Shown: positions 37,193 to 54,092, numbered from the stretch's first letter. The stretch: DNA of 64,000 bases from Helicobacteraceae bacterium (GCA_013138865.1 WTBY01000033.1:489-64488); one strand, 5' to 3'. Made by a program: numbers and translations. Notes: generated by a model not told the origin, from the letters alone.

Positions 37193-38155
37193 ATGAAAAG
37201 AATAGCAATTTTATGTTCAGGTGGTGAAGCATCAGGAATGAATCCAGCACTTAAACGATTTGTTGAGTACTCTTATGAGTTAAATTTAACTCCTTTTTTT
37301 ATATATGATGGTTTAAATGGTCTTATAGATAACAATATAAAAGAAGCATCTTTTAAATTAGTAAGCGGAATTATTAGTCGTGGTGGAACTATTATAAGGA
37401 CATCAAGATCACCACGATTTAAAGAGCTTGAATTTAGAGAAATTGCATTTGAAAATTTAAAACAACATAATATAACTATGCTTGTTATTCTTGGTGGTGA
37501 TGGTACGATTAGAGCATTAGATATTTTCTATAAAGAGTTCAATATACCATTCTGTGCTATTCCTGCTACTATTGATAATGATATATTTGCTTCATCATAT
37601 AGCTTAGGTGTTGATACTGCTTTAAACTCCATTAAGAACTCTATCGACTCTATTCGCGATAGTGCCTCATCATTTAATAGAGCGTTTGTTATTGAGACTA
37701 TGGGAAGAGAGTGTGGTTATTTAGCACTTATTTCAGCTATGACATCTGGTGCAGAAATTTGTCTAATTCCTGAGGTTGAGTATGATCTTGAAAAAATAAG
37801 AACAAAAGCACTACAGCAAATTAAAAATGGTAGAACATATTTTATAGCGGTTGTATCTGAGGGAATTAAACAGAGTTCTGAAGAGATTGCTTTATGGTTT
37901 GAAAAGGAGTTAAATATAGAAGCTAGAGTTACAAAACTAGGACATACTCAAAGAGGTGGAAACCCAACTGTTTACGATCGCGTTATGGCTTACAAGTTTG
38001 TAACACTTGCTATTGATACGCTCAATAGTAACCACTCAAGTAGTGTTATCTGTTTTAACGACTCACACTTTGAGTATAAGAGTATAAGTGAAGTAAGTAA
38101 TCAGAAAAATATTTTAGACCAAGAACTTATAGAAGAGGCAAAAAAGTTTAACTAA
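37193..38155 (+). CDS. pfkA: ATP-dependent 6-phosphofructokinase
   Basis: Motifs GGDGT, PATIDNDI, METMGRECGYLA, LGHTQRGG. Confidence 0.9.
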   Translation: MKRIAILCSGGEASGMNPALKRFVEYSYELNLTPFFIYDGLNGLIDNNIKEASFKLVSGIISRGGTIIRTSRSPRFKELEFREIAFENLKQHNITMLVILGGDGTIRALDIFYKEFNIPFCAIPATIDNDIFASSYSLGVDTALNSIKNSIDSIRDSASSFNRAFVIETMGRECGYLALISAMTSGAEICLIPEVEYDLEKIRTKALQQIKNGRTYFIAVVSEGIKQSSEEIALWFEKELNIEARVTKLGHTQRGGNPTVYDRVMAYKFVTLAIDTLNSNHSSSVICFNDSHFEYKSISEVSNQKNILDQELIEEAKKFN

Positions 38156-38676
38156 TAACCTAGCTTTTGTATAACATTTGAGAGACTTGGTACACTTTCT
38201 AGTTTACTTTGAACTCTATATTTTTCTAGAGCAACAACAACTTTTTGCTCCAAAGAGTTAGGTTCTTGAAAAAGAATATTCAAAATAAACTCTCTACCGC
38301 CTATCTCATTAAAAACATAAATTTGCTCTTGGCTAAGTTTAAAACTCTCTCTTAGGTTCAACTTTTTAATAACATCTTTTTCACTTTTATTTAAACTTAT
38401 ACTCTCTTTTGAGACTACGCTTTTAATATCGTGCATTAAAGTCACAATAGCTTTGGCTTTAAGTATTAACTCTTCACTACTTTTTTCACTCTTTTCAAGT
38501 AGTGTAAAAAGTATTTGTGTTCCACTTTTAAACTCTATTTTAGTAGCCTCTTTTAGTGCATCTTTATAGCTACCATATATATTTACAACATCTAACGCTT
38601 CATCAATTAGATCACTATTTTTTATATTTAAACCTTCAAGCAGGTATTCTGCTTGTTTATGTTTAGAGAGTTCCAT
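38152..38676 (-). CDS. hypothetical protein, last gene of the chemosensory block
   Basis: 174-aa ORF, helical, no recognisable motif. It overlaps the upstream gene by 14 nt and the convergent pfkA stop by 4 nt. Confidence 0.5.
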   Translation of the reverse strand: MELSKHKQAEYLLEGLNIKNSDLIDEALDVVNIYGSYKDALKEATKIEFKSGTQILFTLLEKSEKSSEELILKAKAIVTLMHDIKSVVSKESISLNKSEKDVIKKLNLRESFKLSQEQIYVFNEIGGREFILNILFQEPNSLEQKVVVALEKYRVQSKLESVPSLSNVIQKLGY

Positions 38677-39514
38677 CTTTTAAGCCTTTCGCTATAGCTT
38701 CATCACTATAACCTTTTTTTCTATAATATTCAACTGCTCGTTTAGTATCATCAACTACTTTTGCTTCACTACTTTTAGCAATATATAGCATCTCTATTTT
38801 ATTATAGTTTTGTACTAATGAGCTTATATTCATAATGTTATTTCGTAAAAAACGTGCCTCTTTATCATCACTAAAGAGCCACCTGATCGCACCATTAAAC
38901 ATTTCAGGTGTTCTTCCAGTTTCTGCTATATGCAATCTTAAAATATACTGACCATCTTGATTTTTAAACTCTTGGCGTACAAAACTTGGTTGCAATTTTT
39001 TTCTAAATGTATCAAAATTATTTACAACTCTTTTTATATCTAAGTGAAGTGAATCACTCTGATCTTTGAGTGAATGAGGCTTATGAAAGTCAACACTAAC
39101 TTCTTCTTTAATAATAACAGATGAATTGACTACGTTAACAATAGGGTTATTACTCTCTTTAGGCTCATCTTCTGTCTCAACTAAGGAGTTCTGAGTAAAG
39201 AGTTTATTAAGAGCCTTATATTCGATCCTATACATACTTACTTCATTCCAATTACCGGAGTTAAAAACTTTTATCTCTATTAGTTTATCATTATAAAGTT
39301 TCTTTGTTAAGTCATCTAGTTGTTCAAGTCTGAAAAATGGAAAAAACTCTTGAAGTTCTTTTAGAGTAGTTTTATACCATGCAACACTATTTATAAACTC
39401 TGCAGAATTTTGAAGCCATAAATGAAGTTGTTGTATAAAAATAGCCTCATTTAAACCTAAAAGAGTAGCCATTTCGACTTGAATAACAATAGGGGCTTTA
39501 TTTGTCATAAACAT
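38663..39514 (-). CDS. hypothetical protein, possible N-terminal winged-helix (DnaD/replication-organiser-like) region
   Basis: 283-aa ORF. The N-terminal pattern LLGLNEAIFIQQLHLWLQNS...WYKTTLKELQEFFPF weakly resembles wHTH domains of replication-organiser proteins. The rest is unassigned. Confidence 0.45.
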   Translation of the reverse strand: MFMTNKAPIVIQVEMATLLGLNEAIFIQQLHLWLQNSAEFINSVAWYKTTLKELQEFFPFFRLEQLDDLTKKLYNDKLIEIKVFNSGNWNEVSMYRIEYKALNKLFTQNSLVETEDEPKESNNPIVNVVNSSVIIKEEVSVDFHKPHSLKDQSDSLHLDIKRVVNNFDTFRKKLQPSFVRQEFKNQDGQYILRLHIAETGRTPEMFNGAIRWLFSDDKEARFLRNNIMNISSLVQNYNKIEMLYIAKSSEAKVVDDTKRAVEYYRKKGYSDEAIAKGLKDGTL

Positions 39515-39525
39515 CTAACTAATAT

Positions 39526-39732
39526 TTATGATGGTTTAATCATTATCTTAAAATTTTCACCAAGAGATTGAATAATAAAGTCATGCTTTTTACAAAAATC
39601 TTTTTTCATAGTAGCTACCATACGTTCTGCTTCTTCCTTAGCCTCTAAACTGCTATCAAAGTTTTGAGTCTCAACCATACCACTTCTCAAAAAACATCTA
39701 CATGCATTTTGTACTTCTACTTTTGCCATCAT
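39526..39732 (-). CDS. small hypothetical protein (68 aa, three Cys)
   Basis: ORF packed 6 nt after the receiver gene and 11 nt before the next gene. No motif recognised. Confidence 0.4.
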   Translation of the reverse strand: MMAKVEVQNACRCFLRSGMVETQNFDSSLEAKEEAERMVATMKKDFCKKHDFIIQSLGENFKIMIKPS

Positions 39733-39738
39733 AAACTC

Positions 39739-40626
39739 CTAAAAATCAAAAATATCATCTTCTTCATCAGTTTTTACATCTACATTTTTTTGAAACTCTG
39801 CATTTTGAGGTTTCTTTTCAATAATATTTTCACTAACAGTCATATCAGACTCTACACTCGCTACTTTAGAAAGTTTAAAGCTTATGTTAGAATTATCTAT
39901 TTTATAATCTTTTGTAATAGAGTTTCTAGATAGAACAAGATTTATTAACTTTTCACTAACCTGCTCTACATTTACTATTGTAAAATATATATCTTCTTGA
40001 GACTCTTCAACTATAACTCTAACACTCTCTTTAAGTTTTTTTATAAAAACCTCACCAATAGAGAAAATAGTACGTATAATATCACTAAGTCCATCATACT
40101 TCTCTTCTGAGTCTAGTAGATAATACTCCCAAAACTCTGAAAGAGAGTCCTCTGAAGTTATATTAAATGTCATATGACGTGAGAAAATAGCATTTGTATA
40201 ACTGTTAATATTGTCACTACTTAAACGCTTGTGACTTCTTGAGTCTAAAAGTAGCAAATAGTTTGCTAAACGACTTTGAAAAATATTTACATTTATTGGT
40301 TTTGATATATAATCTTCAGCACCATTTGCAAGTATAGTTTTTTGACGTTGTATATCATCAACAGCAGAAACAGCAATAATTATCGAAGTAGAGTTTTTAC
40401 TTCTAATTATTTTAGTAGCTTCAATACCATCAACATTAGGCATCATAATATCCATGAAAATCAGATTGTATTGTTTTTCATTTGTTTTATCAATAGCGAT
40501 CTGACCATCTTCAGCTTCATCTATATCAAAAGAGACATCATCATTCTCTTCCATATAGTCTTCTAAAAGAAGATGTAAAATCATACGGTTATTTTTGTTA
40601 TCATCAACTATTAAAATATTAATCAT
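39739..40626 (-). CDS. response regulator receiver fused to an uncharacterised roughly 165-aa C-terminal domain
   Basis: REC motifs (ILIVDDN, LIFMDIMMPNVDG, SKP). The C-terminal half has no known output motif and an acidic tail. Confidence 0.75.
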   Translation of the reverse strand: MINILIVDDNKNNRMILHLLLEDYMEENDDVSFDIDEAEDGQIAIDKTNEKQYNLIFMDIMMPNVDGIEATKIIRSKNSTSIIIAVSAVDDIQRQKTILANGAEDYISKPINVNIFQSRLANYLLLLDSRSHKRLSSDNINSYTNAIFSRHMTFNITSEDSLSEFWEYYLLDSEEKYDGLSDIIRTIFSIGEVFIKKLKESVRVIVEESQEDIYFTIVNVEQVSEKLINLVLSRNSITKDYKIDNSNISFKLSKVASVESDMTVSENIIEKKPQNAEFQKNVDVKTDEEDDIFDF

Positions 40627-40672: not shown

Positions 40673-41413
40673 TTAAATTCTCTCTAAAAGTTCACTTGTA
40701 AATTTTTGATAATCACGTAAACCTTTTGAGCGCTTAGGGTTAAGAACAACAGGAGAAGCCGACTCAAACATTTTAGCTAGTTTTATATCTACCCCTATTG
40801 GTGAAAATAGTTTATTTTCACCAAAAGATTTTTTCACTTTCTCTAACATTAATTTATGTTCATTTATATGTGGGTTATACATAACAGGTAAAATACCAAT
40901 TTCTGCTATATCACGACCTATTTGTGTTGCTGATTGATATATTGCTCTCATCATCTGACCAACTGCTACTACACCTAAATGATGCGGTTGAAATGGGATC
41001 ACAACTGCGTCACATACTTCTAATGAATTTTTTAACAGTGCATCAAATGTAGGAGGAGTATCAATAATACAGTAGTCAAAAAACTCAGCTATTTTTTCAT
41101 GTTTAAAGCGACTTTTTAAGACACCTCTTAAGTCTGCGTATTCATAAACATCAAAAAATTCTAATGCCGAAGAGACAGTTAATCCATCATGAATAGTTGG
41201 TTTGAAAGTTTCACTTAGAGTTTTACCTAGAAATATAGAGTGAGCGCCACACTCTTCAGATAGTTGGCATCCTACTCCCATAGAAGCATGACCTTGTGTA
41301 TCAAAGTCTATAAGTAAAACAGAACCTTTTTTAGCTAACTCAGAAGCTAAGTTTACCGCTGTTGTTGTTTTAGCTGAACCACCTTTACGGTTACTAATTA
41401 CAATGGTCTTCAC
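40673..41413 (-). CDS. ParA/MinD-family ATPase (chemosensory-array partitioning type)
   Basis: Deviant Walker A ISNRKGGSAKTTT and ParA-like Walker A'/B regions. Embedded in the che block. Confidence 0.8.
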   Translation of the reverse strand: MKTIVISNRKGGSAKTTTAVNLASELAKKGSVLLIDFDTQGHASMGVGCQLSEECGAHSIFLGKTLSETFKPTIHDGLTVSSALEFFDVYEYADLRGVLKSRFKHEKIAEFFDYCIIDTPPTFDALLKNSLEVCDAVVIPFQPHHLGVVAVGQMMRAIYQSATQIGRDIAEIGILPVMYNPHINEHKLMLEKVKKSFGENKLFSPIGVDIKLAKMFESASPVVLNPKRSKGLRDYQKFTSELLERI

Positions 41414-41663
41414 TTAAACTAAATCCTTCTAAAACTTTTTGATAAATAAGTATCTTATCAGAAAACTTATAGTTACAAACACATAACTTTTTATATGCCA
41501 TAATTTGTTGTAAAAGTGCTAAGTGAACATCTTCACATGCAGTAAAATCAAATGTGATTTCAGTAGGTGCAACTTCTAGAAGGTGATCACGAAGTGCTGG
41601 AACTTCATCTTCGTACATAACTCCATCAAAAATTACTTCATTTTCTTTAATATTCATTCCCAT
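41394..41663 (-). CDS. small acidic hypothetical protein (weakly STAS-like)
   Basis: 89-aa ORF overlapping the parA-like start by 20 nt. The segment ITFDFTACEDVHLALLQQIM faintly resembles an anti-sigma-antagonist/STAS core. Confidence 0.35.
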   Translation of the reverse strand: MGMNIKENEVIFDGVMYEDEVPALRDHLLEVAPTEITFDFTACEDVHLALLQQIMAYKKLCVCNYKFSDKILIYQKVLEGFSLSEDHCN

Positions 41664-41678
41664 TTTTAATCCTTTATG

Positions 41679-42452
41679 TTAACTATTTTCTGGTAATTCA
41701 ACTGATTTAATTATATTTACTAAATAGTTGTCAAGGTCTATAATACCTTCAAGTTCTAAAAATTTACTCACTTTATTACTCTCTTTTCTCTCTTTTATAC
41801 TTGAAGGATCAATATGAGCGATATCTACAATAGAGTCAACTTTAATTGCGAAAGTTCCTTTTTCACTACCTTGATAGATAAGTAGTTTTTGTAAAGACGC
41901 GGCAACTATGTCAAATTCTGCTATAAAAGTATCGATAGCACCCATTGTATGGTTATAAATTTCATATACTTCAGTCTCAACTTTTTTTATTGCTGCTTCT
42001 TGATCTACTTCTAAAAGTTCTAATATTTCAACAGCAGACGTATGAAGTGTTTTATGATAAGTATTAAGCTCTTTTAATATTTCACTTACATGCTCATCAT
42101 ACGATGTAAAACCATCTAACCATTTACCAAGTTCACATATATGAGGATTTGTAGTTTTATTAAAAGTGACTTTTTTAGTAACACTCATTTTTAGTGCTTC
42201 TACCCACTCTGTATGTTGAATTTTAAGTTTATCAAATAGAACTTTCAACTCACTCCCATAAGTAGGTAAGTTTATCATTTCACGAAAACCAACAACTTTT
42301 ATTACATTATCTTCATATGACATCATACCCTCTACAAGAGGGTGTGAATTAGGTATATCTGTAAGAATAGGTGCTTGTATAATTCTTTGGATATTTTCTA
42401 TACTAACAGCATACCTATTATTTTGTACTGCAAAAATCATTAAATCTTTCAT
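41679..42452 (-). CDS. CheW-like coupling protein with an internal CZB (chemoreceptor zinc-binding) domain
   Basis: CheW N-half (residues 1-70) and C-half (about 189-257) flank a CZB motif set: H80-x2-W, H104-x-C106-x-LGKW, H133-x3-H137. Confidence 0.8.
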   Translation of the reverse strand: MKDLMIFAVQNNRYAVSIENIQRIIQAPILTDIPNSHPLVEGMMSYEDNVIKVVGFREMINLPTYGSELKVLFDKLKIQHTEWVEALKMSVTKKVTFNKTTNPHICELGKWLDGFTSYDEHVSEILKELNTYHKTLHTSAVEILELLEVDQEAAIKKVETEVYEIYNHTMGAIDTFIAEFDIVAASLQKLLIYQGSEKGTFAIKVDSIVDIAHIDPSSIKERKESNKVSKFLELEGIIDLDNYLVNIIKSVELPENS

Positions 42453-42453
42453 A

Positions 42454-43221
42454 CTATTCTCCTATATTAATTTTATCTATTACACTACGAAGAACTTTTT
42501 GATGTTCTAAAACACCAACAATATTCATCTGTTTATTAGTTCTTCTTAAACGATCATCTGACTGAATAATAGAGCTATCAGTGTGTAATATATCATCTAT
42601 TTTATCAACAATTAAACCAAAAAGTTTATCTCCATTTCTCAATACTAAAAGTTTTTGCATTTCCTTAGATATATTTAAAGTCAAATTAGAAAGCTCATCT
42701 ATATATGAACATGTAGTTTTAAAAAGGGGTTTAACATTTAGCTCAAGTTCCTCAAGTGCTTTTTCTAAACTCTCTTTTCTAGCCTTAACAACTTCAATAC
42801 CACTCTCATGAAAATGGTTATGTGCTTGAACTAATTTTCTTAGTGTAGGTGCAACTTCTGAGTCAAAAGTGTGAAAAGAATCTAACCATTTCCCTAGTTG
42901 ACACATATGAGGATCAAAAGATTTAGTAAATTTTGTGTTATTTTCAACACTTAATTTAAGCTCGTTAAGCCATATAACATGTTGCTCTTTTAGAGAAAGG
43001 AATAGATCTTTTAAGTCATCAGAGTAAGCCGTTAAGTTAACCATTTTTCTAAAAGAGGCTACATTTATAACATTATCTTCAAAGCTCATCATACCTTCTA
43101 CTACAGAGTTAGGTTTGTTATTCTGTTCAAATTTTTCTAACATTATAATTCTATGCACTTGGTCTAGAGGAAGTGCATAATTTAACTTACCTACTGTAAA
43201 AAGTATATAACTTGTTTGCAT
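42454..43221 (-). CDS. CheW-like coupling protein with an internal CZB domain (paralog)
   Basis: Same split architecture: H81-x2-W, H105-x-C107-x-LGKW, H134/H136/H138. CheW-like sequence lies on both sides. Confidence 0.8.
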   Translation of the reverse strand: MQTSYILFTVGKLNYALPLDQVHRIIMLEKFEQNNKPNSVVEGMMSFEDNVINVASFRKMVNLTAYSDDLKDLFLSLKEQHVIWLNELKLSVENNTKFTKSFDPHMCQLGKWLDSFHTFDSEVAPTLRKLVQAHNHFHESGIEVVKARKESLEKALEELELNVKPLFKTTCSYIDELSNLTLNISKEMQKLLVLRNGDKLFGLIVDKIDDILHTDSSIIQSDDRLRRTNKQMNIVGVLEHQKVLRSVIDKINIGE

Positions 43222-43226
43222 ATATA

Positions 43227-46025
43227 TTAACCTACTTTAGCTTCCATCTCATCTTTTAGTTGATGAGCAATACCTAAAATACCTAAAGGATCAATTGCTA
43301 AAATAATTTGTCCATTACCAAGAAGTGCAGTACCACTAAAGATCTGATGACCTTCCATAACACCCTCAAGTGGTTTTTGAACAACGTCTAGTTGACCTAA
43401 GAACTCATTAACTACGATCGCAATTAAGTTACCTTTTACTTCAAGAACAACTACAGATAGAGCTTCATCATCTAAAGCATCTTCGTTAAGCATAGACTTA
43501 ATAAATAGTAGAGGAATAACTTCTCCACGAAGATATACAAAAGCTTCATTATGTAAATACTCTATTTCACTTCTTGCGATTTTTACAGTCTCATTTACGT
43601 TATCCATAGGAATACCATAGTGAATATCATTCATAAAAATATGTAAAAGTGAAGTAACAGCAAGTGAAACAGGAATAGCTAACGTAATTGTAGTACCTTG
43701 GTTTGGAACTGTAACAATATTAATAGTTCCACCAAAACCTTCAATTGACTTTTTAACAACATCCATACCAACACCACGACCACTAAACTCACTAATTTCA
43801 TCAGCAGTTGAGAGACCAGGAAGAAGAACTAACTCAGCTTTTTCATTGTCACTAAGAGCGTCAATTTGCTCCATAGTCATAAGTCCAGCATCAATAACTT
43901 TAGAAATCACTTTAGTTGTATTAATACCAGCACCATCATCTTTGATCTCGATAATAATTTTATCAGACTGCGCAAATGCTCTTAAATCAACATTACCTTC
44001 TGCTGTTTTGCCTTTATCTGTTCTTGTTTCAGGATCTTCTATACCATGATCAAGAGAGTTTCTCATAATATGAATCATTGGATCAGCTAACATTTCGATC
44101 ATATTTTTATCTAATTTAGTCTCTCCACCATCCATACTTAGGTTTACTTTTTTACCAAGTTTTTTAGAGATGTCACGAACAAGTTTAGGATAGCGATCGA
44201 AAACATAAGAGATCGGAAGCATACGCATAGACATAATAAGGTCTTGTAGTTGTTCTGATAGACGGTTTATAAAAGTATATTTTTCCATAATTCCGCGTGA
44301 GATCATCTCTTTAGACATATCATCAACACCCTCAGCTAAATAAGGTAGTGAGTTTTTAGCAACAAGTAGTTCTCCAACGATATTCATTAAGTTGTCAATT
44401 GACTCTTGATCAATTTTAACTGTTTTTCCAACAACAGCTTTAGCTTTAGCTGGTGCAGTTTTTTTAGCATCATCTTTTGGCTCAGGAGTAGGTGTTGCTT
44501 TAACAGTTTTCACAACTGGTTCAGGTGTAACTTCTTTTACAACTTCTGGTGCTTTTACTGCAGGTATAGGTGTAGTTTTAACAACTTTAACAACTGGTGT
44601 AGCTACAACTTCTTTAACAGCTTCTACTACTGGAGCAGATTCACTTTCAAGGCCAAGTTGAGATTTAATCCAAGAGATAGTCTCTTCTGTTGAGTTAAAA
44701 GTTGCAGGCATATTAGCGTAGTACTTACGAGTAAGTTCAAGTATAGCTACAACACGAGGTAATAAAGTATCATCACCTTGCATAGTCTCTAATGCTAATA
44801 GTTGTTGCTCTAAAATAATTTGTAAATTAGTTTCAATATGCTCATCTACAACTACTATTTCAGTAGCAGGTACTTCTTCTTTAACTATTTCAACTGGAGT
44901 AGGTGTATCTTTGCTAACTTCAGTTGTAGCAGGTGAAGTAGCTACAATGCCATCAGCACTATAAGCAGTTCCTAAATCTAGTGTACTAAAGAATGCATTT
45001 AATTCAGCAAAGTCTTCATCTTTTATAGAGTCCATAATCATTAAGAATCTATTTAATTGTGCATATTGAATAGTCTCTTGACCTATTAAAGGTAAAGTTT
45101 TTTCAATTTCTGCTTTCAAAGAAGCTTTATCGCTGGAAGCTAAAAAGCCAGATACGGTTGCATTTAACTCTTTTAAAACATCAAGTTGTAAGTCATGTTC
45201 ACCACTATCAATTTCAAGAAGTGCAGTAGACGAAAGAGGTGAAATTTTAATCTCATCTAAGAAGTTAAATAATGATTCTTCTATTTCATCATAAGTACCA
45301 TACACAACAGCAGTAATTTGACAACGAAGTAAAAGCCCTTCTTCATCTTCACCACTTAAAAGACCTTTAGCACAAGTTTCACTCATACATACGTGAATAT
45401 CTATAACAGCATCACCTAAAAGCGAAAGTGTATATATTGGATCATTACCATAAACCATACTAGACTCATCAATATCAAAAATAATACCATAAAGTCTAGG
45501 TTGAGCAAATGCTGTCTCATCCATTTCAGGTGTAGTTAGTTCTAGTTTATTACTGTTGCGATTAAGTGCAGTAAATGGTAAGTTAACAATTTCAGCAGGT
45601 GACTCTAACATTGCAAATGGTGCTTCCCATGCATCAGCTTCATTACTTTTTCCCATAGATGCACGAAGTTCAGATACGATCTGTTCAACTGTCTCAGGAT
45701 CAGAATCAACGATATCTTCAGTCTCTTCAGCTGCCTCAACAAGGTTTAAAACTTCATCAAAAGCATTAAATAGTGACTCTGTCATAGACTCTTGAAACTC
45801 TATTTGACCTGATCTTAAAAGATCAAGAAGATCTTCAGCATGGTGAGTGATCTCTTTTACAGATTCAAAACCAACAATACCACTACCACCTTTAAGTGTA
45901 TGAGCCGCACGAAAGACCGAGTTTAGAAGTTCTGGATCATCTCCACCAATTGCTTCTATATTTTGATCAATAAAAGCTAAGTTTTCTCTGGCTTCTTGTA
46001 AAAACTGTTCTAATAATGGATTCAT
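43227..46025 (-). CDS. cheA: chemotaxis histidine kinase CheA (long form, no receiver)
   Basis: Hpt AAHTLKGGSG, dimerisation/HATPase boxes (HIMRNSLDHGIE, DDGAGI, GRGVGMD) and a C-terminal CheW-like P5. About 430 aa between Hpt and the kinase core are unassigned, including a Pro/Val/Lys-rich stretch. Confidence 0.95.
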   Translation of the reverse strand: MNPLLEQFLQEARENLAFIDQNIEAIGGDDPELLNSVFRAAHTLKGGSGIVGFESVKEITHHAEDLLDLLRSGQIEFQESMTESLFNAFDEVLNLVEAAEETEDIVDSDPETVEQIVSELRASMGKSNEADAWEAPFAMLESPAEIVNLPFTALNRNSNKLELTTPEMDETAFAQPRLYGIIFDIDESSMVYGNDPIYTLSLLGDAVIDIHVCMSETCAKGLLSGEDEEGLLLRCQITAVVYGTYDEIEESLFNFLDEIKISPLSSTALLEIDSGEHDLQLDVLKELNATVSGFLASSDKASLKAEIEKTLPLIGQETIQYAQLNRFLMIMDSIKDEDFAELNAFFSTLDLGTAYSADGIVATSPATTEVSKDTPTPVEIVKEEVPATEIVVVDEHIETNLQIILEQQLLALETMQGDDTLLPRVVAILELTRKYYANMPATFNSTEETISWIKSQLGLESESAPVVEAVKEVVATPVVKVVKTTPIPAVKAPEVVKEVTPEPVVKTVKATPTPEPKDDAKKTAPAKAKAVVGKTVKIDQESIDNLMNIVGELLVAKNSLPYLAEGVDDMSKEMISRGIMEKYTFINRLSEQLQDLIMSMRMLPISYVFDRYPKLVRDISKKLGKKVNLSMDGGETKLDKNMIEMLADPMIHIMRNSLDHGIEDPETRTDKGKTAEGNVDLRAFAQSDKIIIEIKDDGAGINTTKVISKVIDAGLMTMEQIDALSDNEKAELVLLPGLSTADEISEFSGRGVGMDVVKKSIEGFGGTINIVTVPNQGTTITLAIPVSLAVTSLLHIFMNDIHYGIPMDNVNETVKIARSEIEYLHNEAFVYLRGEVIPLLFIKSMLNEDALDDEALSVVVLEVKGNLIAIVVNEFLGQLDVVQKPLEGVMEGHQIFSGTALLGNGQIILAIDPLGILGIAHQLKDEMEAKVG

Positions 46026-46034
46026 TTAAACTCC

Positions 46035-46403
46035 CTATCGTTTCAATAAAATTTCTATATAAGCTTTAAGTTGATCAGGCTTAATAGGTTTTGTTTCAAA
46101 TAAGTTTGCACCTACTCTATACGCTTCTAATTTATCACTCTCTTTAGCTTGAGTTGTAATCATAATAACCGGAGTTAATTTATATTTAGGTTGTTTACGT
46201 AACTCTAAGACAAAAGAGTAACCATCCATTACAGGCATATTAACATCAACCAAATATAAAGATACATCGTTATCTAAACTACGTTCTAACGCTTCCATTC
46301 CATTTTCAGCTTCAACGATATCAATACCAATTTCACCTAAAATTGCACCATGATAACTTCTTACAGTTTTTGAATCATCTACTACCATAATTTTTGACAT
46401 CAT
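46035..46403 (-). CDS. cheY: CheY-like single-domain response regulator
   Basis: 122-aa REC (VVDDS, LVDVNMPVMDG, TKP). Confidence 0.85.
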   Translation of the reverse strand: MMSKIMVVDDSKTVRSYHGAILGEIGIDIVEAENGMEALERSLDNDVSLYLVDVNMPVMDGYSFVLELRKQPKYKLTPVIMITTQAKESDKLEAYRVGANLFETKPIKPDQLKAYIEILLKR

Positions 46404-46408
46404 ATCTC

Positions 46409-46780
46409 CTAACGTAAACGCAATACTCTAGTTATTGCTTGTTCTAATTGCTCTGGATTAAATGGTTTAACAATCCAACCAGTAAGACCTAACTCTTTTC
46501 CTTGCTTTTTCAACTCATCTTTTGTTTCAGTTGTAAGCATTAATACAGGAGTCCTCGAAGTAACTTCTAACTTACGAAGCTCAATCATAAACTCAAAACC
46601 ATTCATAACTGGCATATTTAAGTCAGTTATAATAAGGTCTGGTTTTACACCTGCATTAAGATCAGCAAGTGCTGCTTGTGCTTCACTATACTGTTTTACA
46701 TCTATTGGCATTGAATTTGTGATCATACGTGTTGAAGCTAATGCTGTTTCACTATCATCTACAAAAATTACTAATGGCAT
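46409..46780 (-). CDS. cheY: CheY-like single-domain response regulator (second copy)
   Basis: 123-aa REC (FVDDS, IITDLNMPVMNG, VKP). Confidence 0.85.
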   Translation of the reverse strand: MPLVIFVDDSETALASTRMITNSMPIDVKQYSEAQAALADLNAGVKPDLIITDLNMPVMNGFEFMIELRKLEVTSRTPVLMLTTETKDELKKQGKELGLTGWIVKPFNPEQLEQAITRVLRLR

Positions 46781-46792
46781 AAAATTCTCCTA

Positions 46793-47623
46793 TTATTTCT
46801 GGTACACTAAAGTGTCACCAATTTTTTTAGCTTTATAAACTGAAACAATTCTACTCATATACTCAGCATGTCCTAAAAGTACATATCCATCTGGATTTAA
46901 CAGATCGTAAAATGTCATTGCAACCTCTTTACGTGAAGCATCATCAAAATAGATAAGCATATTTCTAGAGAAAATAACATCAAACTTACCAAGTTTTCTA
47001 ACATCTGTCTTATCAAAAATATTACATACTTTAAAGTCAACAGTACCTATTAGATCATCTATAAGTTTGTACCCAAACTGTTTTTTATCAAAGTAAGCTG
47101 ATAGAACTTTTTTTGGTATTGCATGAACAGCGCGATCAGAATAGTTTGCTTTTTTTGCTTTTTCAATTACAGTAGAATCAATATCTATACCAACTATTTC
47201 TATATCTCTCTCTTCTATAAGTTTAGCTTCTTCAAGAAGATGTAAGATCATAGAATATGGCTCTTCACCCGTAGAGCTTGGTGCAGAAAGAATTCTTAAA
47301 ATTTCTCCAGCTGGTTTTGAAGCATGAATTTCAGGTAAAATATGGTTAACTAAAACTTCAAACTGATTAACTTCACGATAAAAATATGTTTCATTTACAG
47401 TTACCGCATTCATTAACTCTTGAAATTCTAGCCCATCAGCATCATCAAAACGAAGTTTATAAAAATATTTTCTAAAACTATCAAACTCTAATTCAGTACA
47501 ACGAGATGACATATATTTTACTAACTTATCAAAATGCTTATCTACTTCTAGGTAGATTCCACTTTTTCTATATATATATTCACTAAGTTTATTAAAATTC
47601 TCTTCTGATAACACGACTGACAT
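46793..47623 (-). CDS. cheR: chemotaxis protein methyltransferase CheR
   Basis: N-terminal helical domain plus SAM-binding motif ILSAPSSTGEEPYS and FSRNMLIYFD. Confidence 0.9.
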   Translation of the reverse strand: MSVVLSEENFNKLSEYIYRKSGIYLEVDKHFDKLVKYMSSRCTELEFDSFRKYFYKLRFDDADGLEFQELMNAVTVNETYFYREVNQFEVLVNHILPEIHASKPAGEILRILSAPSSTGEEPYSMILHLLEEAKLIEERDIEIVGIDIDSTVIEKAKKANYSDRAVHAIPKKVLSAYFDKKQFGYKLIDDLIGTVDFKVCNIFDKTDVRKLGKFDVIFSRNMLIYFDDASRKEVAMTFYDLLNPDGYVLLGHAEYMSRIVSVYKAKKIGDTLVYQK

Positions 47624-47624
47624 A

Positions 47625-48251
47625 TTAGTTATCCTTAATAGCTTTGATAGCTTTATCTACACCAAAAGAGACATAAGCATCATCATGGAACCTAGTTTTA
47701 AGATCTTCTAATAATGGAATATCTTCTTCTTCACCTATTTCACCTAAATAATCAACGGCCGTCATTGCAACATTTATATCTTCTTCACTGTCTAAAAGCT
47801 CCACTAGCATATCACGTGACTCTGCAAAGTTAACATCACCAAGAACATTAATAGCAAAAATTCTAAGATCACGATCATCACCTATTAAAAACTTAACTAT
47901 ATAGTATTTAATTGAGTCACCAAAATCTTGTAACATACAAATACCTAAATTTCTAACATAAGCGTCATCTAGTTTCAAAAGGTCCATAATAGACTCTATC
48001 GGAGCAGTTTTACCATCCATTTTAGAGATAGCAGCAGCTATATGAGCCTCAACATTTTTTTCAGTCTCTTCTTCAACTAGTTTAGAAATTAAAAGTTTTG
48101 GACCCTCATTAAATGTCATCATTTGATCAACAGCATGAACACTATGATCAAAATTTATGGAGTTTTCAAAATATTCATCAGCTTCTTCTAAAGAGTCAAA
48201 TGTTGGTAACTCTTCTATAACTTGAGCTGTATGTTTTTTAACTAATGCCAT
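47625..48251 (-). CDS. HEAT-repeat (PBS-lyase-like) protein
   Basis: At least three HEAT-like units (DAYVRNLGICMLQDFGD, DRDLRIFAINVLGDV, DINVAMTAVDYLGEIG). Confidence 0.65.
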   Translation of the reverse strand: MALVKKHTAQVIEELPTFDSLEEADEYFENSINFDHSVHAVDQMMTFNEGPKLLISKLVEEETEKNVEAHIAAAISKMDGKTAPIESIMDLLKLDDAYVRNLGICMLQDFGDSIKYYIVKFLIGDDRDLRIFAINVLGDVNFAESRDMLVELLDSEEDINVAMTAVDYLGEIGEEEDIPLLEDLKTRFHDDAYVSFGVDKAIKAIKDN

Positions 48252-48264
48252 AATATCTCCTTAC

Positions 48265-49374
48265 TTATCTTATAGTAACAATTTTTTTAACAATTTGTGT
48301 AAAAGATAGCTGTTCCATTACTCCACCATTTTCAAAAGCAACACGTGGCATACCATAAACAGTACAACTATCTTCGCTTTCACCCATAGTAAAACCACCA
48401 GCTTCTCTGATCGCTACCATACCTTCTGCACCATCATCACCAATACCAGTTAAAAGGACAGAAGTTATTTTTGCTCCACCAAATACTTTTAAACCACTTA
48501 AAAACGTCTCATCTACACTTGGTTTAAAAAAGCGCCCTTTATCGTTGTCATTTTCACTTACAACTATAGTTCCTGAAACTTTTTTGGTAAATTCCATATG
48601 CGATCCACCACGTGCTAAATAGATATTTCCAGGGCAAATTTCCATACCGTGTTTAGTATGGTGTACATTTAGCTTAGATGATTTATTTAGTCTACCAGCA
48701 AATGCTTCAGTAAACTGTGCAGGCATATGTTGAACAATACAAACCGCGTGAGGAAAATCAGCAGGCAAGGATGAACATATTTGCTCAATTAGCCCAGGTC
48801 CACCAGTAGACGCACCTACAAAAATAATTTTTTTTATATCTTTTGAAGATGTAGTTGGTTTTACTATTTCATTACTTTTAGATACTCTTTCAGTACGATT
48901 AGGTCGTTCAGATATTTCATTTTCAGGTTCATTTCTTCTTATTGGTCTACGAGCTCTATTTGCTTTTATTCTACGTTTTGATATACGACTTAATGCCTGA
49001 AGTTTTTCTATAATATCTTCAGAGTTTTCATGTTTACCGATATTCATAGTACCAGGTTTTGTAACGTAATCAATTGCACCTAAGTCTAATGCTTCCATCG
49101 TTGAAGTAGCATTGTCAGAAGTTAAAGAGCTTACCATAAGAATAGCAGATGGGTTTTTTTTCATAATTTCACCAACAGCAGTAAGACCATCCATCACTGG
49201 CATATTAATATCCATAGTAATTACATCATAATCAGTAGCACATGCTTTATCAACACCCTCTTGACCATTTTTTGCAGTCTCTATTTCAAAATCTAGTCCA
49301 CTACCTTTAATAAGTTCAGACAACTGTTTTCTAACTAGTGCTGAATCGTCGACTATTAGTACCTTTTTACTCAC
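48265..49374 (-). CDS. cheB: chemotaxis methylesterase CheB (REC plus esterase)
   Basis: REC N-terminus, linker, GASTGGP and the CheB esterase pattern. Confidence 0.9.
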   Translation of the reverse strand: MSKKVLIVDDSALVRKQLSELIKGSGLDFEIETAKNGQEGVDKACATDYDVITMDINMPVMDGLTAVGEIMKKNPSAILMVSSLTSDNATSTMEALDLGAIDYVTKPGTMNIGKHENSEDIIEKLQALSRISKRRIKANRARRPIRRNEPENEISERPNRTERVSKSNEIVKPTTSSKDIKKIIFVGASTGGPGLIEQICSSLPADFPHAVCIVQHMPAQFTEAFAGRLNKSSKLNVHHTKHGMEICPGNIYLARGGSHMEFTKKVSGTIVVSENDNDKGRFFKPSVDETFLSGLKVFGGAKITSVLLTGIGDDGAEGMVAIREAGGFTMGESEDSCTVYGMPRVAFENGGVMEQLSFTQIVKKIVTIR

Positions 49375-49387
49375 ATTAAACCTTTAT

Positions 49388-50752
49388 TTAATTAAATATA
49401 TCATTAATTTTAAATAATAATACAAGTCTATTGCCACCATCTAAATGTAGTACATTTGAAAAAAGAGCTGCGTTATCTTTTGCTTCACGAATATCACTAT
49501 CTAAAATATTATAAATTCCACTTACACTATCAACTCTAAAACCCATTTGAGTACCATTAATATTACAAATAATTATTTTTTCTTGGACACTTTTTACTTC
49601 TTGCACACCTAATCGCCTATGAAGAGAAACAAGAGTTACAATCTGACCACGTATGTTTATAATTCCATCAACTCTAGAGTCACTAAGAGCAACATTTGTA
49701 GAGTCTATAACATCCATAATCTCTGCAACATACTCTATATCAAATGCATATTCTACGCTGTCAAGTTTAAAAACAACAACTTCTAACTCGCCCCTAACTT
49801 GAAGAGCTACTTCAGTTTCTGAAGAGTTTGAAAATTTGTCATTTTCAGCAATTAATGGGATCAAGGCTTGAGAAGAGATAATAGATATTAACTGTTCACC
49901 AGAATGTATTACACCAGATATTTTTGTATCTTGAAAATTAATAGGCATACGCTCTAATTCTGATTGTTCATACTCTGCAATATCTAAAATCTGATCAACT
50001 ATAAGTCCAATTTTTTTGTCATTTACATAAACTATAAGTACTCTATTTTTATCACTACTAGTAGCTTCTAAATTATAGTACATTCTAAGATCAGCTATAA
50101 TCATTAACTCTTCTCGAAGTGAAACAAGACCTAAAATTTCAGCAGATGAACCAGCAATATCACTATAATCAGTAGGAACTGTAATAATCTCTCTTAAATC
50201 ATCAATATGCACGGCAAACTGTTCATTCGCCATCTTAAAGACTAAGTATCTCTCTTTATTAGATATTTTTTCAACTACTATTCCAGACTTTGTTCCATCT
50301 TTGATCTCAATAGGATCATATTTTTTTAACTTAACCCCTGAGCTTAAAGTTTTAATATCTAAGACTTGTATTATTTTATTATTATTATTATTATGGTAAA
50401 TTGCACAAATAGCACTTTCATCACTTGAATCAACTGATTCAAGAGACTCTTCATCTACACTCAATGTAATTGTGATAGATGATACTAGCATAGCCATCTT
50501 TTTATCATCATCATTTAATAATAAAAGTCTACTATCTTCATTTTCAACATCAACTTGTCCAATATCTAACAAAATATTCAGATCAAGTGCCGGTGTAATA
50601 TCACCAGCAACAGCACAAAGTCCACGGACTTCTCTTGGCGAGAGTGGTAAAACTGTTAGGTTTGGAACTCTAAGAATTTGGTCTATTTTGTTAGTATCAA
50701 TAGCATAGCTGATATCATCATGCTCTATGACTAATATCTCTTTAATTTGCAT
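49388..50752 (-). CDS. triple CheW-domain coupling protein
   Basis: Three successive CheW-like modules in 454 aa, each with the ...YAI/FAV...V.EI... and ...G.IVD.I... patterns. Confidence 0.8.
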   Translation of the reverse strand: MQIKEILVIEHDDISYAIDTNKIDQILRVPNLTVLPLSPREVRGLCAVAGDITPALDLNILLDIGQVDVENEDSRLLLLNDDDKKMAMLVSSITITLSVDEESLESVDSSDESAICAIYHNNNNNKIIQVLDIKTLSSGVKLKKYDPIEIKDGTKSGIVVEKISNKERYLVFKMANEQFAVHIDDLREIITVPTDYSDIAGSSAEILGLVSLREELMIIADLRMYYNLEATSSDKNRVLIVYVNDKKIGLIVDQILDIAEYEQSELERMPINFQDTKISGVIHSGEQLISIISSQALIPLIAENDKFSNSSETEVALQVRGELEVVVFKLDSVEYAFDIEYVAEIMDVIDSTNVALSDSRVDGIINIRGQIVTLVSLHRRLGVQEVKSVQEKIIICNINGTQMGFRVDSVSGIYNILDSDIREAKDNAALFSNVLHLDGGNRLVLLFKINDIFN

Positions 50753-50755
50753 AAA

Positions 50756-52636
50756 TTAACCTTGTTGTAGCTCATCTGCCATAACAGCTAACTCTTCAAC
50801 ACCATCACCAATATGTGAAATTGTCTCTATAATTAACTCACTAGCTTTTCTTGATTCCATAGCATTTCTTGCCGAAAGCTCAACTGCTTTTTGGATCTCT
50901 GTAACACCAACCATACCTTGGTTTAATCCTTCAAGATTTTGATCATTTACAGATTTAAGTCCCGCGTAACGATCTATTAAATCTACTAACATATCTGAAA
51001 TTTTATCTATATCAGTAAGAAGAGAGTCTATTCTTGTATGCTCTTTTCCTTGATCACTTAAAAGTTGACCCCAGTCATTTCTAACTGTATCAATTTCAGC
51101 ATTCATAGACTCAATAGTATCATTAATTTTTTCAGTATTTGACTCAGAATCTTTTGCTAAGTTACGAATATCAGCTGAAACAACTGCAAAACCTTTTCCA
51201 AACTCACCAGCACGTGCAGCCTCAATAGAGCCACTGATTGCAAGCATATTTAACTGAATAATAGAGTTAGAAATATTTCCAACTGTTTTGTCAACATTTC
51301 TAGTCTCTTTAACAATAACTTCTATCTCATTATTAGCAGAGTTACCCTCATTTATAGAATTTTGAAATGCCTCTTTAATTTTTACGATTGTAGATTTTAC
51401 TGAAAGGAATGAAGTTTTAACTAAATCGAAGTTACGACGAGCAATATTAATAAGTTCATCAATATCTTTAGCCGCAGATAGACCTATCTCTAAGTTATCT
51501 TTATTTTTAAGTGCGCTTTGGTTTGTCGTAGTAGAACTAGCTTCAATTTGGTTAAGAGCACTAGTTACATCTACAAGAGCAGATTGGATCTCTTCCATAC
51601 TACCACCAATAGCGTCAGCACTACTAGCAATCTCTTCAGCAGATTTCATAGAGTCTGTTGAGTATTTAAGCTCTTCTGCTAAGTTTGAAAGCTCTTTAAT
51701 ATCGTCTTCTGTTTGAACCAATGCAGATGACTGAACATCTATTCCATTTAAAGTTTTTTCAACTGAAAGTGCAATTGAGTGAGAAGAGTCAGCAATATCT
51801 TGACTTCCATCATTTACACTTTGAGCAGCTTCACCTAAAGTAGTAGTATAAGAGTGAATACTTCTAGCCGCTTCAACTGAATAGATTGCTATTTTAGTTA
51901 GTTCTTCCATTTTAAGACTTAACTCTGTACCAGTTTCACCAGTTGTAGAGATTATGTCAGTAGTACCAACGATACTTTTTATAATATCATCTATACTACT
52001 TTGAATTTTATTTACTAACTCAGAGATAAATTCTGCATTTTTCTCACTCTCACCTGCAAGTGCACGAGTTTCATCAGCAACAACTGCAAAACCTTTACCA
52101 TGCTCTTTAGCACGACTTGCTTCGATCGCAGCATTAAGTGCAAGAAGATTAGTCTGATCAGCAATTTTAGCAATAAAACCAACAGCTTCACCAATATTTT
52201 CAGAAGATAGTTTTAACTCTTCTGATTTTTTAGAAGATGCTTTTGCAACTTCTACTGCACTGTTCATACGACCTACACTAGAATTAATTGTACTAACAGC
52301 ACCTATAATACTATCACCAGTAGCAGATGTTGAACTAATAACAGTATCAATTGTAGAGTTCATACGATTTATGTTCGCGTTAATAGCTTTTACGTTTTTA
52401 AGAGCTTGTTCACTTGCTCCACTATTCTCTTCAGCTGCAGTTGCAATTTGCTCCATTGAAGACTTAAGTTCTTCGATCGCACTTACACTCTCTTGAGCGT
52501 TGTTTAATATATTAGATGCAACACCTGCAATACCTTCACTAATTTGCTGTTGTTTAGCAAGCGTTCTTTGGCGACGCTTATTATCACTTGCTCCACTTGA
52601 AACTACCGCTGAGTTAGATTTTTTAACTAATGCCAT
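50756..52636 (-). CDS. soluble methyl-accepting chemotaxis protein with two signalling hairpin tips (DosM-like)
   Basis: No TM segment. Tip 1 is QTNLLALNAAIEASRAKEHGKGFAVVADETRALA (aa 161-194). Tip 2 is QLNMLAISGSIEAARAGEFGKGFAVVSADIRNLA (aa 461-494). Confidence 0.9.
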   Translation of the reverse strand: MALVKKSNSAVVSSGASDNKRRQRTLAKQQQISEGIAGVASNILNNAQESVSAIEELKSSMEQIATAAEENSGASEQALKNVKAINANINRMNSTIDTVISSTSATGDSIIGAVSTINSSVGRMNSAVEVAKASSKKSEELKLSSENIGEAVGFIAKIADQTNLLALNAAIEASRAKEHGKGFAVVADETRALAGESEKNAEFISELVNKIQSSIDDIIKSIVGTTDIISTTGETGTELSLKMEELTKIAIYSVEAARSIHSYTTTLGEAAQSVNDGSQDIADSSHSIALSVEKTLNGIDVQSSALVQTEDDIKELSNLAEELKYSTDSMKSAEEIASSADAIGGSMEEIQSALVDVTSALNQIEASSTTTNQSALKNKDNLEIGLSAAKDIDELINIARRNFDLVKTSFLSVKSTIVKIKEAFQNSINEGNSANNEIEVIVKETRNVDKTVGNISNSIIQLNMLAISGSIEAARAGEFGKGFAVVSADIRNLAKDSESNTEKINDTIESMNAEIDTVRNDWGQLLSDQGKEHTRIDSLLTDIDKISDMLVDLIDRYAGLKSVNDQNLEGLNQGMVGVTEIQKAVELSARNAMESRKASELIIETISHIGDGVEELAVMADELQQG

Positions 52637-52652
52637 AATATTTACCTTTTTC

Positions 52653-53075
52653 CTAGTCTAATGTAGCGTAAAGCTCAATTGATTTCTTAATATCTTCACG
52701 AGTTGGTTTCACACGAATTGATACATATTTAGTATTTCCACTTTTGTCAATTGAACGAAGAACTGTTGCATATACCCAGTAATGTCCTCCACCTTTACGT
52801 GCATTTTTAACAAAACCAGTCCAAAATCCTTTTTCTTGGACATCGTCCCATAAGCTTTTAAATGCAGCACGAGGCATATCTGGATGGCGAACAACATTAT
52901 GTGGCTGACCAATAAGATCACTCGGGCACATATTTGCTATTTTAAAAAAAGAGTCACTTGCATAAGTCACTATACCCTTTTCATCTGTTTCTGATAACAA
53001 GTATAAGTCATCATATAATACTTCACCATCATCTAAAAATGTTAGACCTTCTGTGCTTACTGTACAATCTGCCAT
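52653..53075 (-). CDS. standalone Aer/CetB-like PAS (FAD-type) sensor protein
   Basis: GQPHNVVRHPDMPRAAFKSLW...KNARKGGGHYWV closely follows the E. coli Aer PAS core (GQPHNMVRHPDMPKAAF...KNRRKNGDHYWV). Confidence 0.85.
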   Translation of the reverse strand: MADCTVSTEGLTFLDDGEVLYDDLYLLSETDEKGIVTYASDSFFKIANMCPSDLIGQPHNVVRHPDMPRAAFKSLWDDVQEKGFWTGFVKNARKGGGHYWVYATVLRSIDKSGNTKYVSIRVKPTREDIKKSIELYATLD

Positions 53076-53251: not shown

Positions 53252-53527
53252 TTAGATATTATCTCTAATAGCTAAATCTGAGACTAATTTGTTGTATGAA
53301 GTTTTGTTTGTACGTTTGAAATAACGCATTAAACGACGACGTTGACCAACTAATTTTAAAAGACCTAAACGTGATGCATGATCTTTTTTATGAGTTTTAA
53401 GATGATCTGTAAGTTCAGCAATACGGCTACTTAAAAGTGCTATTTGTACTTCACTTGATCCTGTGTCACTACCGTTACGTCCATATTTTGAAACAATCTC
53501 TTGTTTTTTCGCCTGATCTAGAGCCAT
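53252..53527 (-). CDS. rpsO: 30S ribosomal protein S15
   Basis: [12 protein letters not shown]...[41 protein letters not shown] is the S15 pattern. The internal ATG start gives 91 aa. Confidence 0.9.
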
Positions 53528-53640
53528 AATGGCCTCCTGATTGGTATAAATTCTAAACATTTTTTAACTAGAAAAAATATAAAGTTCGAAATAATATCTA
53601 AATTAAATAAAAATTTCAACATCAAGTAAAACTTCTTAGC

Positions 53641-53646
53641 TATAAT
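53641..53646 (+). promoter_or_regulatory. candidate -10 box TATAAT for the Rrf2-flhA operon
   Basis: TATAAT lies 32 nt upstream of the ATG, with AGAGG between them. Confidence 0.4.
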
Positions 53647-53677
53647 CACAATAAATATTAATTTATATAGAGGTTTA

Positions 53678-54088
53678 ATGTTACTAACTCGTGCAAGTGA
53701 ATACGCTCTTTTATCATTATTACTTTTAGCTAAGAGTGACAAACCACTTGACACAGAGACTCTTTCGAGTGAACTTAAAATTTCAAAAAGTTTTTTAGCA
53801 AAAATACTTCAAGCTTTAGCACGTCGTAAGATTTTAAACTCATACAAAGGTGTTAATGGAGGCTTTAGTCTAGCTAGAAAAATGGAAGAGATTAGCATTT
53901 TTGACATTATGGAGTCTGCTGAAAAAAAAGCACCGGCTGTGTTTGACTGTTCTGACTCTATTGAAAGTTGTCCATCTCAACAAGCTTCTACTTGTGCAAT
54001 ATGGCCAATGATCAATAACCTTCAAGGACGAATAGATATTTTTTTAAAAAATATCTCTTTAAAAGATATTTTAGAGCAAGAGAGCTAA
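53678..54088 (+). CDS. Rrf2-family transcriptional regulator with three-Cys cluster
   Basis: N-terminal wHTH MLLTRASEYALLSLLLLA typical of Rrf2. Three C-terminal cysteines (C..C......C) suggest Fe-S ligation. Confidence 0.85.
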   Translation: MLLTRASEYALLSLLLLAKSDKPLDTETLSSELKISKSFLAKILQALARRKILNSYKGVNGGFSLARKMEEISIFDIMESAEKKAPAVFDCSDSIESCPSQQASTCAIWPMINNLQGRIDIFLKNISLKDILEQES

Positions 54089-54092
54089 GTCC

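Follow-up and report, generated by a model that had tools for sequence, protein, structure and literature searches.

Tandem CheW coupling proteins with a nested CZB domain in an F9-class chemosensory operon of a Helicobacteraceae bacterium

Two CheW genes and the CZB module nested in each

The subject of this analysis is a pair of adjacent genes for CheW-type coupling proteins in a stretch of DNA of 64,000 nucleotides from a Helicobacteraceae bacterium (GCA_013138865.1 WTBY01000033.1:489-64488). This whole stretch is called the window below. Each of the two proteins carries a CZB zinc-binding domain; we designated the upstream paralog W1 and the downstream paralog W2. A first-pass annotation, made from the sequence, had described two tandem CheW paralogs here, each with a CZB domain inserted inside the CheW fold. 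The two open reading frames (ORFs) are real, lie on the minus strand with 1 bp between them, and encode proteins with 34% identity over 251 residues (E 1e-48). Beyond W1 and W2, no further CZB motifs were found in the 64-kb window. The parts of the two genes, in window coordinates, are listed below (aa, amino acids).

42454..43221, minus strand: W1, CheW with nested CZB, upstream paralog, ORF of 255 aa
43027..43221, minus strand: W1 CheW N-terminal half, residues 1-65, beta1-beta5 and a short helix (Pfam CheW profile 2-66; model strands 2-56)
42658..43026, minus strand: W1 inserted CZB four-helix module, residues 66-188 (CZB match 81-145; model helices)
42979-42981, 42901-42903, 42820-42822, 42808-42810, minus strand: W1 codons of the predicted ligands H81, C107, H134 and H138, respectively
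42454..42657, minus strand: W1 CheW C-terminal half, residues 189-255 and stop codon (tail matches CheW profile 68-107; model strands 190-251)
41679..42452, minus strand: W2, CheW with nested CZB, downstream paralog, ORF of 257 aa
42261..42452, minus strand: W2 CheW N-terminal half, residues 1-64 (Pfam CheW profile 2-63; model strands 2-55)
41892..42260, minus strand: W2 inserted CZB module, residues 65-187 (CZB match 80-144; model helices)
42213-42215, 42135-42137, 42054-42056, 42042-42044, minus strand: W2 codons of the predicted ligands H80, C106, H133 and H137, respectively
41679..41891, minus strand: W2 CheW C-terminal half, residues 188-257 and stop codon (tail matches CheW profile 70-128; model strands 189-251)
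~42312-42386 (W2) and ~43078-43152 (W1), minus strand: bridge residues (see below)

In Pfam searches the CheW profile PF01584 (gathering cut-off 23.5 bits) matched each protein in two stretches, with scores of 59 bits for W2 and 52 bits for W1. The CZB profile PF13682 (cut-off 29.4 bits) was spanned in full, at residues 80-144 of W2 and 81-145 of W1, with 39.6 and 47.4 bits, respectively. We observed that the CZB domain sits between CheW profile positions ~66 and 68, and not at either terminus. The C-terminal tails, taken in isolation, matched CheW over the profile positions listed above, and the W2 N-terminal half aligned to residues 13-79 of T. maritima CheW. When residues 68-186 of W2 were excised in silico, the rest of the protein produced a single contiguous CheW match, covering positions 2-128 of the 138 in the profile, and the score grew to 69.5 bits from the 59 bits of the intact protein. 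A scan with NCBIfam found no specific model for W1 or W2 and gave weak DgcZ and ZntR matches only.

The AlphaFold2 models of W2 and W1 had predicted local distance difference test (pLDDT) values of 92.3 and 90.9 and predicted template modeling (pTM) scores of 0.82 and 0.81, respectively. Both models show five strands, a short helix, the helical module, and then more strands (six in W2, five in W1). The helices of the module span residues 65-93, 107-114, 120-147, 151-177, and 180-187 in W2, and 66-94, 108-115, 124-148, 152-178, and 181-188 in W1. In Foldseek searches with the two models, the whole CheW structures 2CH4, 2QDL, 6S1K, and 8C5V aligned over ~250 query columns, to both halves, with template modeling (TM) scores, normalized to CheW, from 0.72 to 0.78. 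The CZB structure of DgcZ (3T9O) matched the middle of the models with a TM score of 0.66 for W2 (3t9o_B) and 0.77-0.80 for W1; the root-mean-square deviation of these alignments was 2.7-3.9 over ~122 columns. Since the CheW matches are split around a DgcZ-like middle, the two halves are predicted to reassemble as one CheW fold, with the insert making up the entire CZB bundle.

At the level of predicted structure, each protein is therefore confirmed as a complete CZB domain nested between the halves of one CheW fold. The first-pass annotation fared well here. It had proposed that the flanks are CheW halves, that a profile search would find CheW split around CZB, and that the halves would reassemble in an AlphaFold model; the tails did match CheW alone, both profiles scored above their gathering cut-offs in both proteins, and the models agreed. 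The nucleotide ranges it gave for the CZB domains were right within ~7 codons. The residues it named as the CZB ligand set are also all present (H80, H104, C106, LGKW, H133, and H137 in W2; H81, H105, C107, H134, and H138 in W1), with the reservation that H104, while conserved, is probably not a ligand, judging by the spacing to DgcZ.

By the same spacing, the predicted zinc ligands are H80, C106, H133, and H137 (W2 numbering). The step from Cys to His is 27, followed by H-x3-H, as in DgcZ, where the counterparts are C52, H79, and H83. In an alignment of 36 sequences H80, C106, G109, W111, H133, and H137 were invariant, and the Cys motif of the proteins studied here, C-E-L-G-K-W, fits C-x-[LF]-G-x-W. 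The full ligand set was kept in all 12 proteins of the tandem pairs described below, and the ligands were intact in 51 of the 62 single-copy orthologs.

To see how widely the nesting extends among relatives, one may look at the 1350 related clusters (50% identity) found in an exhaustive search, 462 of them at E<=1e-10. The best 150 representatives are mostly 250-290 aa long, with the CZB motif in a central position. After an equivalent excision, the distant representatives produced a contiguous CheW match in 10 of 10 cases, near full-length in nine. The CheW-CZB family as a whole is built in this nested way, which is not peculiar to this locus. The C-terminal half-domain scores too weakly by itself, and this is probably why the censuses write CheW-CZB as two domains fused end to end. 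A Firmicutes-type member of the family was seen as an orphan gene amid sporulation genes.

For the location of the insert with respect to the CheW surfaces we used an E. coli CheW sequence whose numbering reproduces E38, G57, R62, and G63 of PMC3828127. In an ungapped register, the insert takes the place of the E. coli CheW loop 76-85, between strand 5 and strand 6. In the sequence register, its N-side corresponds to E. coli I65, P67, and F75, and its C-side to T86, V87, and V88. The former residues make CheA interface 1 and CheW-ring contacts, and the latter are known from receptor-interface genetics (PMC13098124). In the W2 model the helix 65-93 begins 5 residues past the helix 56-59, and the helix 180-187 stops one residue short of the strand 189-194 (strand 6).

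In CheW, the conserved Glu38-Arg62 bridge holds the receptor and kinase sites in alignment (PMC3828127). In W2 and W1 the respective positions are R23/E47 and R24/E48; thus, the polarity is reversed and the canonical pair is absent. All six W1 and six W2 proteins of the tandem pairs retain this R/E bridge. Among 110 family representatives, the pair (E,R) occurred in 34 and (R,E) in 20, while (E,E) or (R,R) occurred in none. The swap is specific to the Campylobacterota-type subfamily of CheW-CZB; domains 2 and 3 of the triple-CheW protein CheW3 and the CheA P5 domain of the same operon retain E/R. As far as sequence can tell, the charge swap looks compensatory, which argues for a retained scaffold geometry. 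We considered E47 as a sign of lost receptor binding and rejected it, since R62 is the partner of E38 and is not what sets the affinity (PMC3828127), and the residues covary.

The F9 operon and its relatives

The two genes belong to a tightly packed operon, with gaps between genes from -20 to 46 bp. Its order is PAS, DosM-like receptor, CheW3, CheB, HEAT, CheR, CheY, CheY, CheA, W1, W2, 89-aa protein, ParA-like protein, and response regulator. The genes other than W1 and W2 are as follows.

52653..53075, minus strand: stand-alone PAS protein, 140 aa, first operon gene (Pfam)
50756..52636, minus strand: DosM-like receptor with two tandem methyl-accepting chemotaxis protein (MCP) signaling domains (halves match MCPsignal separately, 105 and 72 bits)
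49388..50752, minus strand: CheW3, triple CheW, 454 aa (Pfam CheW in 3 stretches, 235 bits)
46035..49374, minus strand: CheB, HEAT-repeat protein, CheR, and two CheY-like receivers (order kept in ~80 related loci)
43227..46025, minus strand: CheA with Hpt, dimerization, HATPase, and P5/CheW domains (5 bp upstream of W1)
41394..41663, minus strand: 89-aa protein, between W2 and the ParA-like gene (weak STAS_2 match, E 0.012)
40673..41413, minus strand: ParA/MinD-family ATPase
39739..40626, minus strand: terminal response regulator, 295 aa (receiver domain only in Pfam)

A DosM receptor with two signaling domains together with CheW3 is the hallmark of the F9 systems, which in V. cholerae form two-layered cytoplasmic arrays of unknown function (PMC9321776, PMC7534058). 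Sensor domains are missing from 98% of DosM homologs, hence the arrays need another input (PMC9321776). Only two DosM homologs have a sensory domain, and both of them carry CZB (PMC9321776 Table S6). In the DosM-like receptor of the window, Pfam likewise found, beyond MCPsignal, only weak below-cut-off matches of the coiled-coil type. The F9 order published for Sulfurimonas gotlandica GD1 and a Sulfuricurvum is [DosM W3 B. R Y. Y A W1], with W1 given as a "single CheW domain" (PMC9321776 Table S6). The gene order in the window agrees with the published one and is kept in ~80 loci. W1 and W2 belong to an F9-class accessory cluster, which is distinct from the main chemotaxis pathway of the flagella. 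Judging by its position and the gene order, the published Campylobacterota F9 "W1" gene appears to correspond to the sensor-bearing CheW studied here.

The comparison set was made of 80 related loci, mostly from Sulfurimonas and Sulfuricurvum metagenome-assembled genomes, and the operon was retained across them. Most relatives have a single CheW-CZB gene, orthologous to W2. The adjacent pair was present in six genomes only, the window and five relatives. In a neighbor-joining tree, built without support values, W1 formed its own long-branched clade apart from W2, and Sulfuricurvum had a pair of independent origin, with one gene on either side of the 89-aa gene. The first-pass annotation had spoken of a tandem duplication; the adjacent paralogs are there, but with the two proteins in different clades the pair, as judged from the tree, is not a recent tandem duplication.

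Some of the Sulfuricurvum second copies, 142-168 aa long, have no CZB domain altogether. Among the relatives we also found insert-free proteins of 140-149 aa with up to 50% identity to the CheW halves of W2, closer than W1 is. These proteins bear a linker of 8-14 residues at the insertion point, and one of them (P0158) fills the same operon slot in locus L081. Since insert-free proteins occupy the same slot, the slot itself is a conserved one for a coupling protein, and the CZB domain is a discrete module that this protein may carry or lack. In L081 (8001-9156) both CheW slots are CZB-less (proteins of 148 aa and 142 aa), and the two CheY genes of this locus are separated by an additional gene for a 129-aa protein.

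In two further proteins from other lineages, P0160 and P0182, the CZB domain is nested in the second CheW domain of CheW3. Thus, CZB was found at three places in F9-type clusters: in DosM homologs, in CheW3 domain 2, and in the single-domain CheW. The CheW3(CZB) proteins have 684 and 768 aa (L082 9001-11055 and L083 9001-11307), and their clusters have the order CheW3-CheB-HEAT-CheR-CheY-CheA. The best 150 representatives mentioned above include ~12 CheW3(CZB) clusters at 50% identity.

A number of side observations concern the other genes of the operon and its surroundings. PAS-matching ORFs adjoin DosM in many related loci, some of them full-length (L044, L056, L058). The 89-aa protein has invariant H47 and C88 and no model in NCBIfam; in some loci its gene precedes that of CheW or is flanked by two of these. 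Orthologs of the terminal response regulator are mostly 430-462 aa long. Aligned with the L011 ortholog, the window copy covers residues 1-265 and 431-440, so that ~165 internal residues are cleanly absent in frame, with the C-terminal DDIFDF retained; neither the missing nor the remaining C-terminal region had a Pfam match. Truncation by a mobile element was rejected, since this is a clean in-frame internal deletion that kept DDIFDF. A partner-switching output (STAS protein plus a response regulator with PP2C) was set aside, as Pfam finds only a receiver in the regulator and the STAS match is weak (E as listed).

Directly downstream of the operon, at 38152-39732 on the minus strand, there are three ORFs of 68, 283, and 174 aa, with gaps of 6, 11, and -14 bp, packed as if co-transcribed; none of them had a Pfam match. 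Farther away, at 27833-31109 on the minus strand, the genes of a dCache_3 histidine kinase and of a receiver protein of 465 aa form a pair; in its C-terminal part the receiver protein is distantly similar to the full-length terminal response regulator of the F9 locus L011 (23% identity, E 2e-13). Immediately upstream of the operon, at 53252-56321, lie the genes of ribosomal protein S15 and, in divergent orientation, of FlhA (flagellar export gate). No tRNA genes and no Rfam matches were found in the whole 64-kb window.

Proposed role and rival explanations

We hold, with moderate confidence, that W1 and W2 are coupling proteins that pass a redox or zinc signal to the F9 baseplate via a zinc-thiolate sensor. 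The CheW part would dock into the CheA/CheW baseplate, and the CZB part would hold zinc via a reactive thiolate. On oxidation of the Cys or loss of zinc the bundle would change, in the manner demonstrated for TlpD and DgcZ. In the CZB proteins studied so far, oxidants are sensed through the formation of Cys-sulfenic acid at the zinc thiolate, which leads to a conformational change (PMC8262984). The first and last CZB helices run directly into the CheW elements flanking the ring- and receptor-contact residues, and the altered bundle could in this way change the CheW geometry and control CheA. In this case the coupling protein, and not the receptor, would be the entry point of the stimulus, with DosM being a scaffold that has no sensor domain. 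In favor of this reading speak the nested topology with its confident models, the well-kept ligands, the tight junctions between the bundle and CheW, the F9 setting in which DosM mostly has no sensor, the recurrence of CZB at three places in F9-type clusters, and a CheW scaffold that looks functional. It is also possible, though we regard it as rather doubtful, that a W1-W2 heterodimer formed via the CZB bundles would be the main redox/zinc sensor of the F9 array, with DosM a mere scaffold, and that selection would have repeatedly placed CZB on different F9 parts (DosM, CheW3, and the single CheW).

Several observations weigh against sensing by W1 and W2. CZB-less orthologs stand in the same operon slot (in L081, and as post-STAS copies in L049, L053, and L072), so that CZB is dispensable for the core role. 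Some paralogs have degenerate ligands (C106S, H80Y or H80C), among them some of the Sulfuricurvum second copies. The stand-alone PAS protein could be the real sensor of the array. Then, the CZB domains studied so far bind zinc with low- to sub-femtomolar affinity (PMC8262984), and with a sub-femtomolar affinity zinc may be purely structural here. Finally, the segment T-x-I-P-N-x-H, aligned with the CheA-binding surface, is lost in the W1 clade, and confidence in the W1 model is lowest at this very segment. W2 and the single-copy orthologs do retain it, in register with E. coli T46-P52 of CheA interface 1, as seen in the sequence register only. This difference suggests that W1 and W2 may occupy different positions or bind different partners.

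Among the rival explanations, we consider it unlikely that CZB is a zinc-stabilized dimerization module that joins two CheW units, as a W1-W2 pair in the window and as homodimers in other genomes, and shapes or stabilizes the F9 baseplate, or bridges rings, and does no sensing. Such a role would fit with what is known of CZB, which is homodimeric in all studied cases, with helix 1 forming much of the dimer interface and zinc binding promoting rigidity (PMC8262984). The state with two paralogs arose twice independently, as the adjacent pair here and as the Sulfuricurvum pair flanking the STAS-like gene, and the fact that W1 and W2 differ in the T-x-I-P-N-x-H segment fits distinct lattice positions. 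However, a lone copy is found in most genomes, and in some the slot holds a protein that lacks CZB; the reactive Cys and the motif C-x-L-G-x-W are kept as strictly as in the proven sensors. It is very improbable that W1 and W2 are redundant or decaying duplicates, with one or both copies drifting and having no distinct role. W1 does evolve faster, as its mean identity within the clade is 45% and that of W2, taken from these six genomes, is 61%, and the Sulfuricurvum post-STAS paralogs show both ligand loss and CZB loss. On the other hand, both ORFs are intact and their models confident, none of the six W1 and six W2 proteins has lost a ligand or the R/E bridge, and the pair persists across six divergent genomes.

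In yet another explanation, W1 and W2, perhaps with the 89-aa protein, would link the cytoplasmic array to the ParA-like ATPase for placement or segregation, similarly to ParP-ParC or TlpT-PpfA. The block of W, the 89-aa gene, and the ParA-like gene was kept in nearly all related loci that extend that far; the ParA-like gene adjoins the CheW3(CZB) cluster in L083 as well; and ParP itself enters arrays by a CheW-like domain. Still, we find a positioning adaptor quite improbable. W1 and W2, with strand 1 starting from residue 2, have no N-terminal extension or proline-rich linker such as found in the ParC-binding region of ParP. The ParA-like gene is located downstream with another gene between, while parC is immediately upstream of parP, and a zinc-thiolate sensor domain has no obvious tethering role.

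Entry of a redox or zinc signal at the baseplate, if true, would give F9 its first defined input, and coupling proteins with a nested sensor would present a signaling principle. Detailed images exist of the F9 systems (cluster I of V. cholerae and its kin), but their input and output are unknown, and reviews describe DosM as sensor-less. CheW-CZB, a coupling protein with a zinc-thiolate sensor domain of a proven type that is conserved in ~80 Sulfurimonadaceae F9 clusters, is a concrete, testable candidate for the F9 input. The natural CZB-less orthologs in the same slot could serve as controls, and experiments are feasible, as cultured relatives exist, e.g., Sulfurimonas gotlandica GD1.

Comparison with known systems

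CheW-CZB proteins make up 1.4% of CZB proteins and are most abundant in Clostridia (Perkins et al. 2021, PMC8262984); they were treated as a previously identified architecture by Muok et al. 2023 (PMC10653840). We found only census mentions of CheW-CZB in the searchable literature (PMC8262984, PMC10653840), in agreement with the belief stated in the first-pass annotation that the class is uncharacterized. Neither text describes an insertion or an experiment, and the searchable text of both mentions no nested topology, F9 association, or paired paralogs. What is added here is the family-wide nesting, the place of the Campylobacterota CheW-CZB as an integral and, it appears, so far mislabeled part of the F9 clusters, the presence of CZB on three F9 components, and the natural CZB-less orthologs. 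The record should be corrected in that CheW-CZB is a domain insertion and not an end-to-end fusion.

W1 and W2 resemble the catalogued class in having CheW and CZB on one polypeptide, CZB in the variable cluster III, and a residue other than Arg at position 2 of the Cys motif. With H. pylori TlpD and E. coli DgcZ they share the 3His/1Cys site, the Cys motif, and the four-helix-bundle fold (as in the 3t9o matches above). In TlpD and DgcZ, however, CZB is terminal and regulates a receptor coiled coil or GGDEF, while in W1 and W2 it lies within a loop of a coupling protein. CheV and Treponema denticola CheWS (CheW-CheR-like) (PMC10653840) also combine CheW with a regulatory or sensor domain for input at the baseplate level. 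These are end-to-end fusions, whereas in W1 and W2 the sensor continues into the CheW fold at both of its chain ends.

The similarity to ParP is in the CheW-like domain and the location near a ParA-family ATPase gene in a che operon; ParP has a ParC-interaction domain with a linker and parC immediately upstream, while W1 and W2 lack both and carry a sensor domain. With the F9 systems of V. cholerae (cluster I) and S. gotlandica, the window shares the DosM with two signaling domains, CheW3, and the order DosM-W3-B-x-R-Y-Y-A-W. The F9 baseplates of V. cholerae consist of CheA and CheW3 only (PMC7534058), while the window cluster adds the CheW-CZB genes; the tail with the 89-aa, ParA-like, and response regulator genes is an add-on relative to known F9. 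W1 and W2 are thus not a new kind of system but fresh members of a catalogued, unstudied family.

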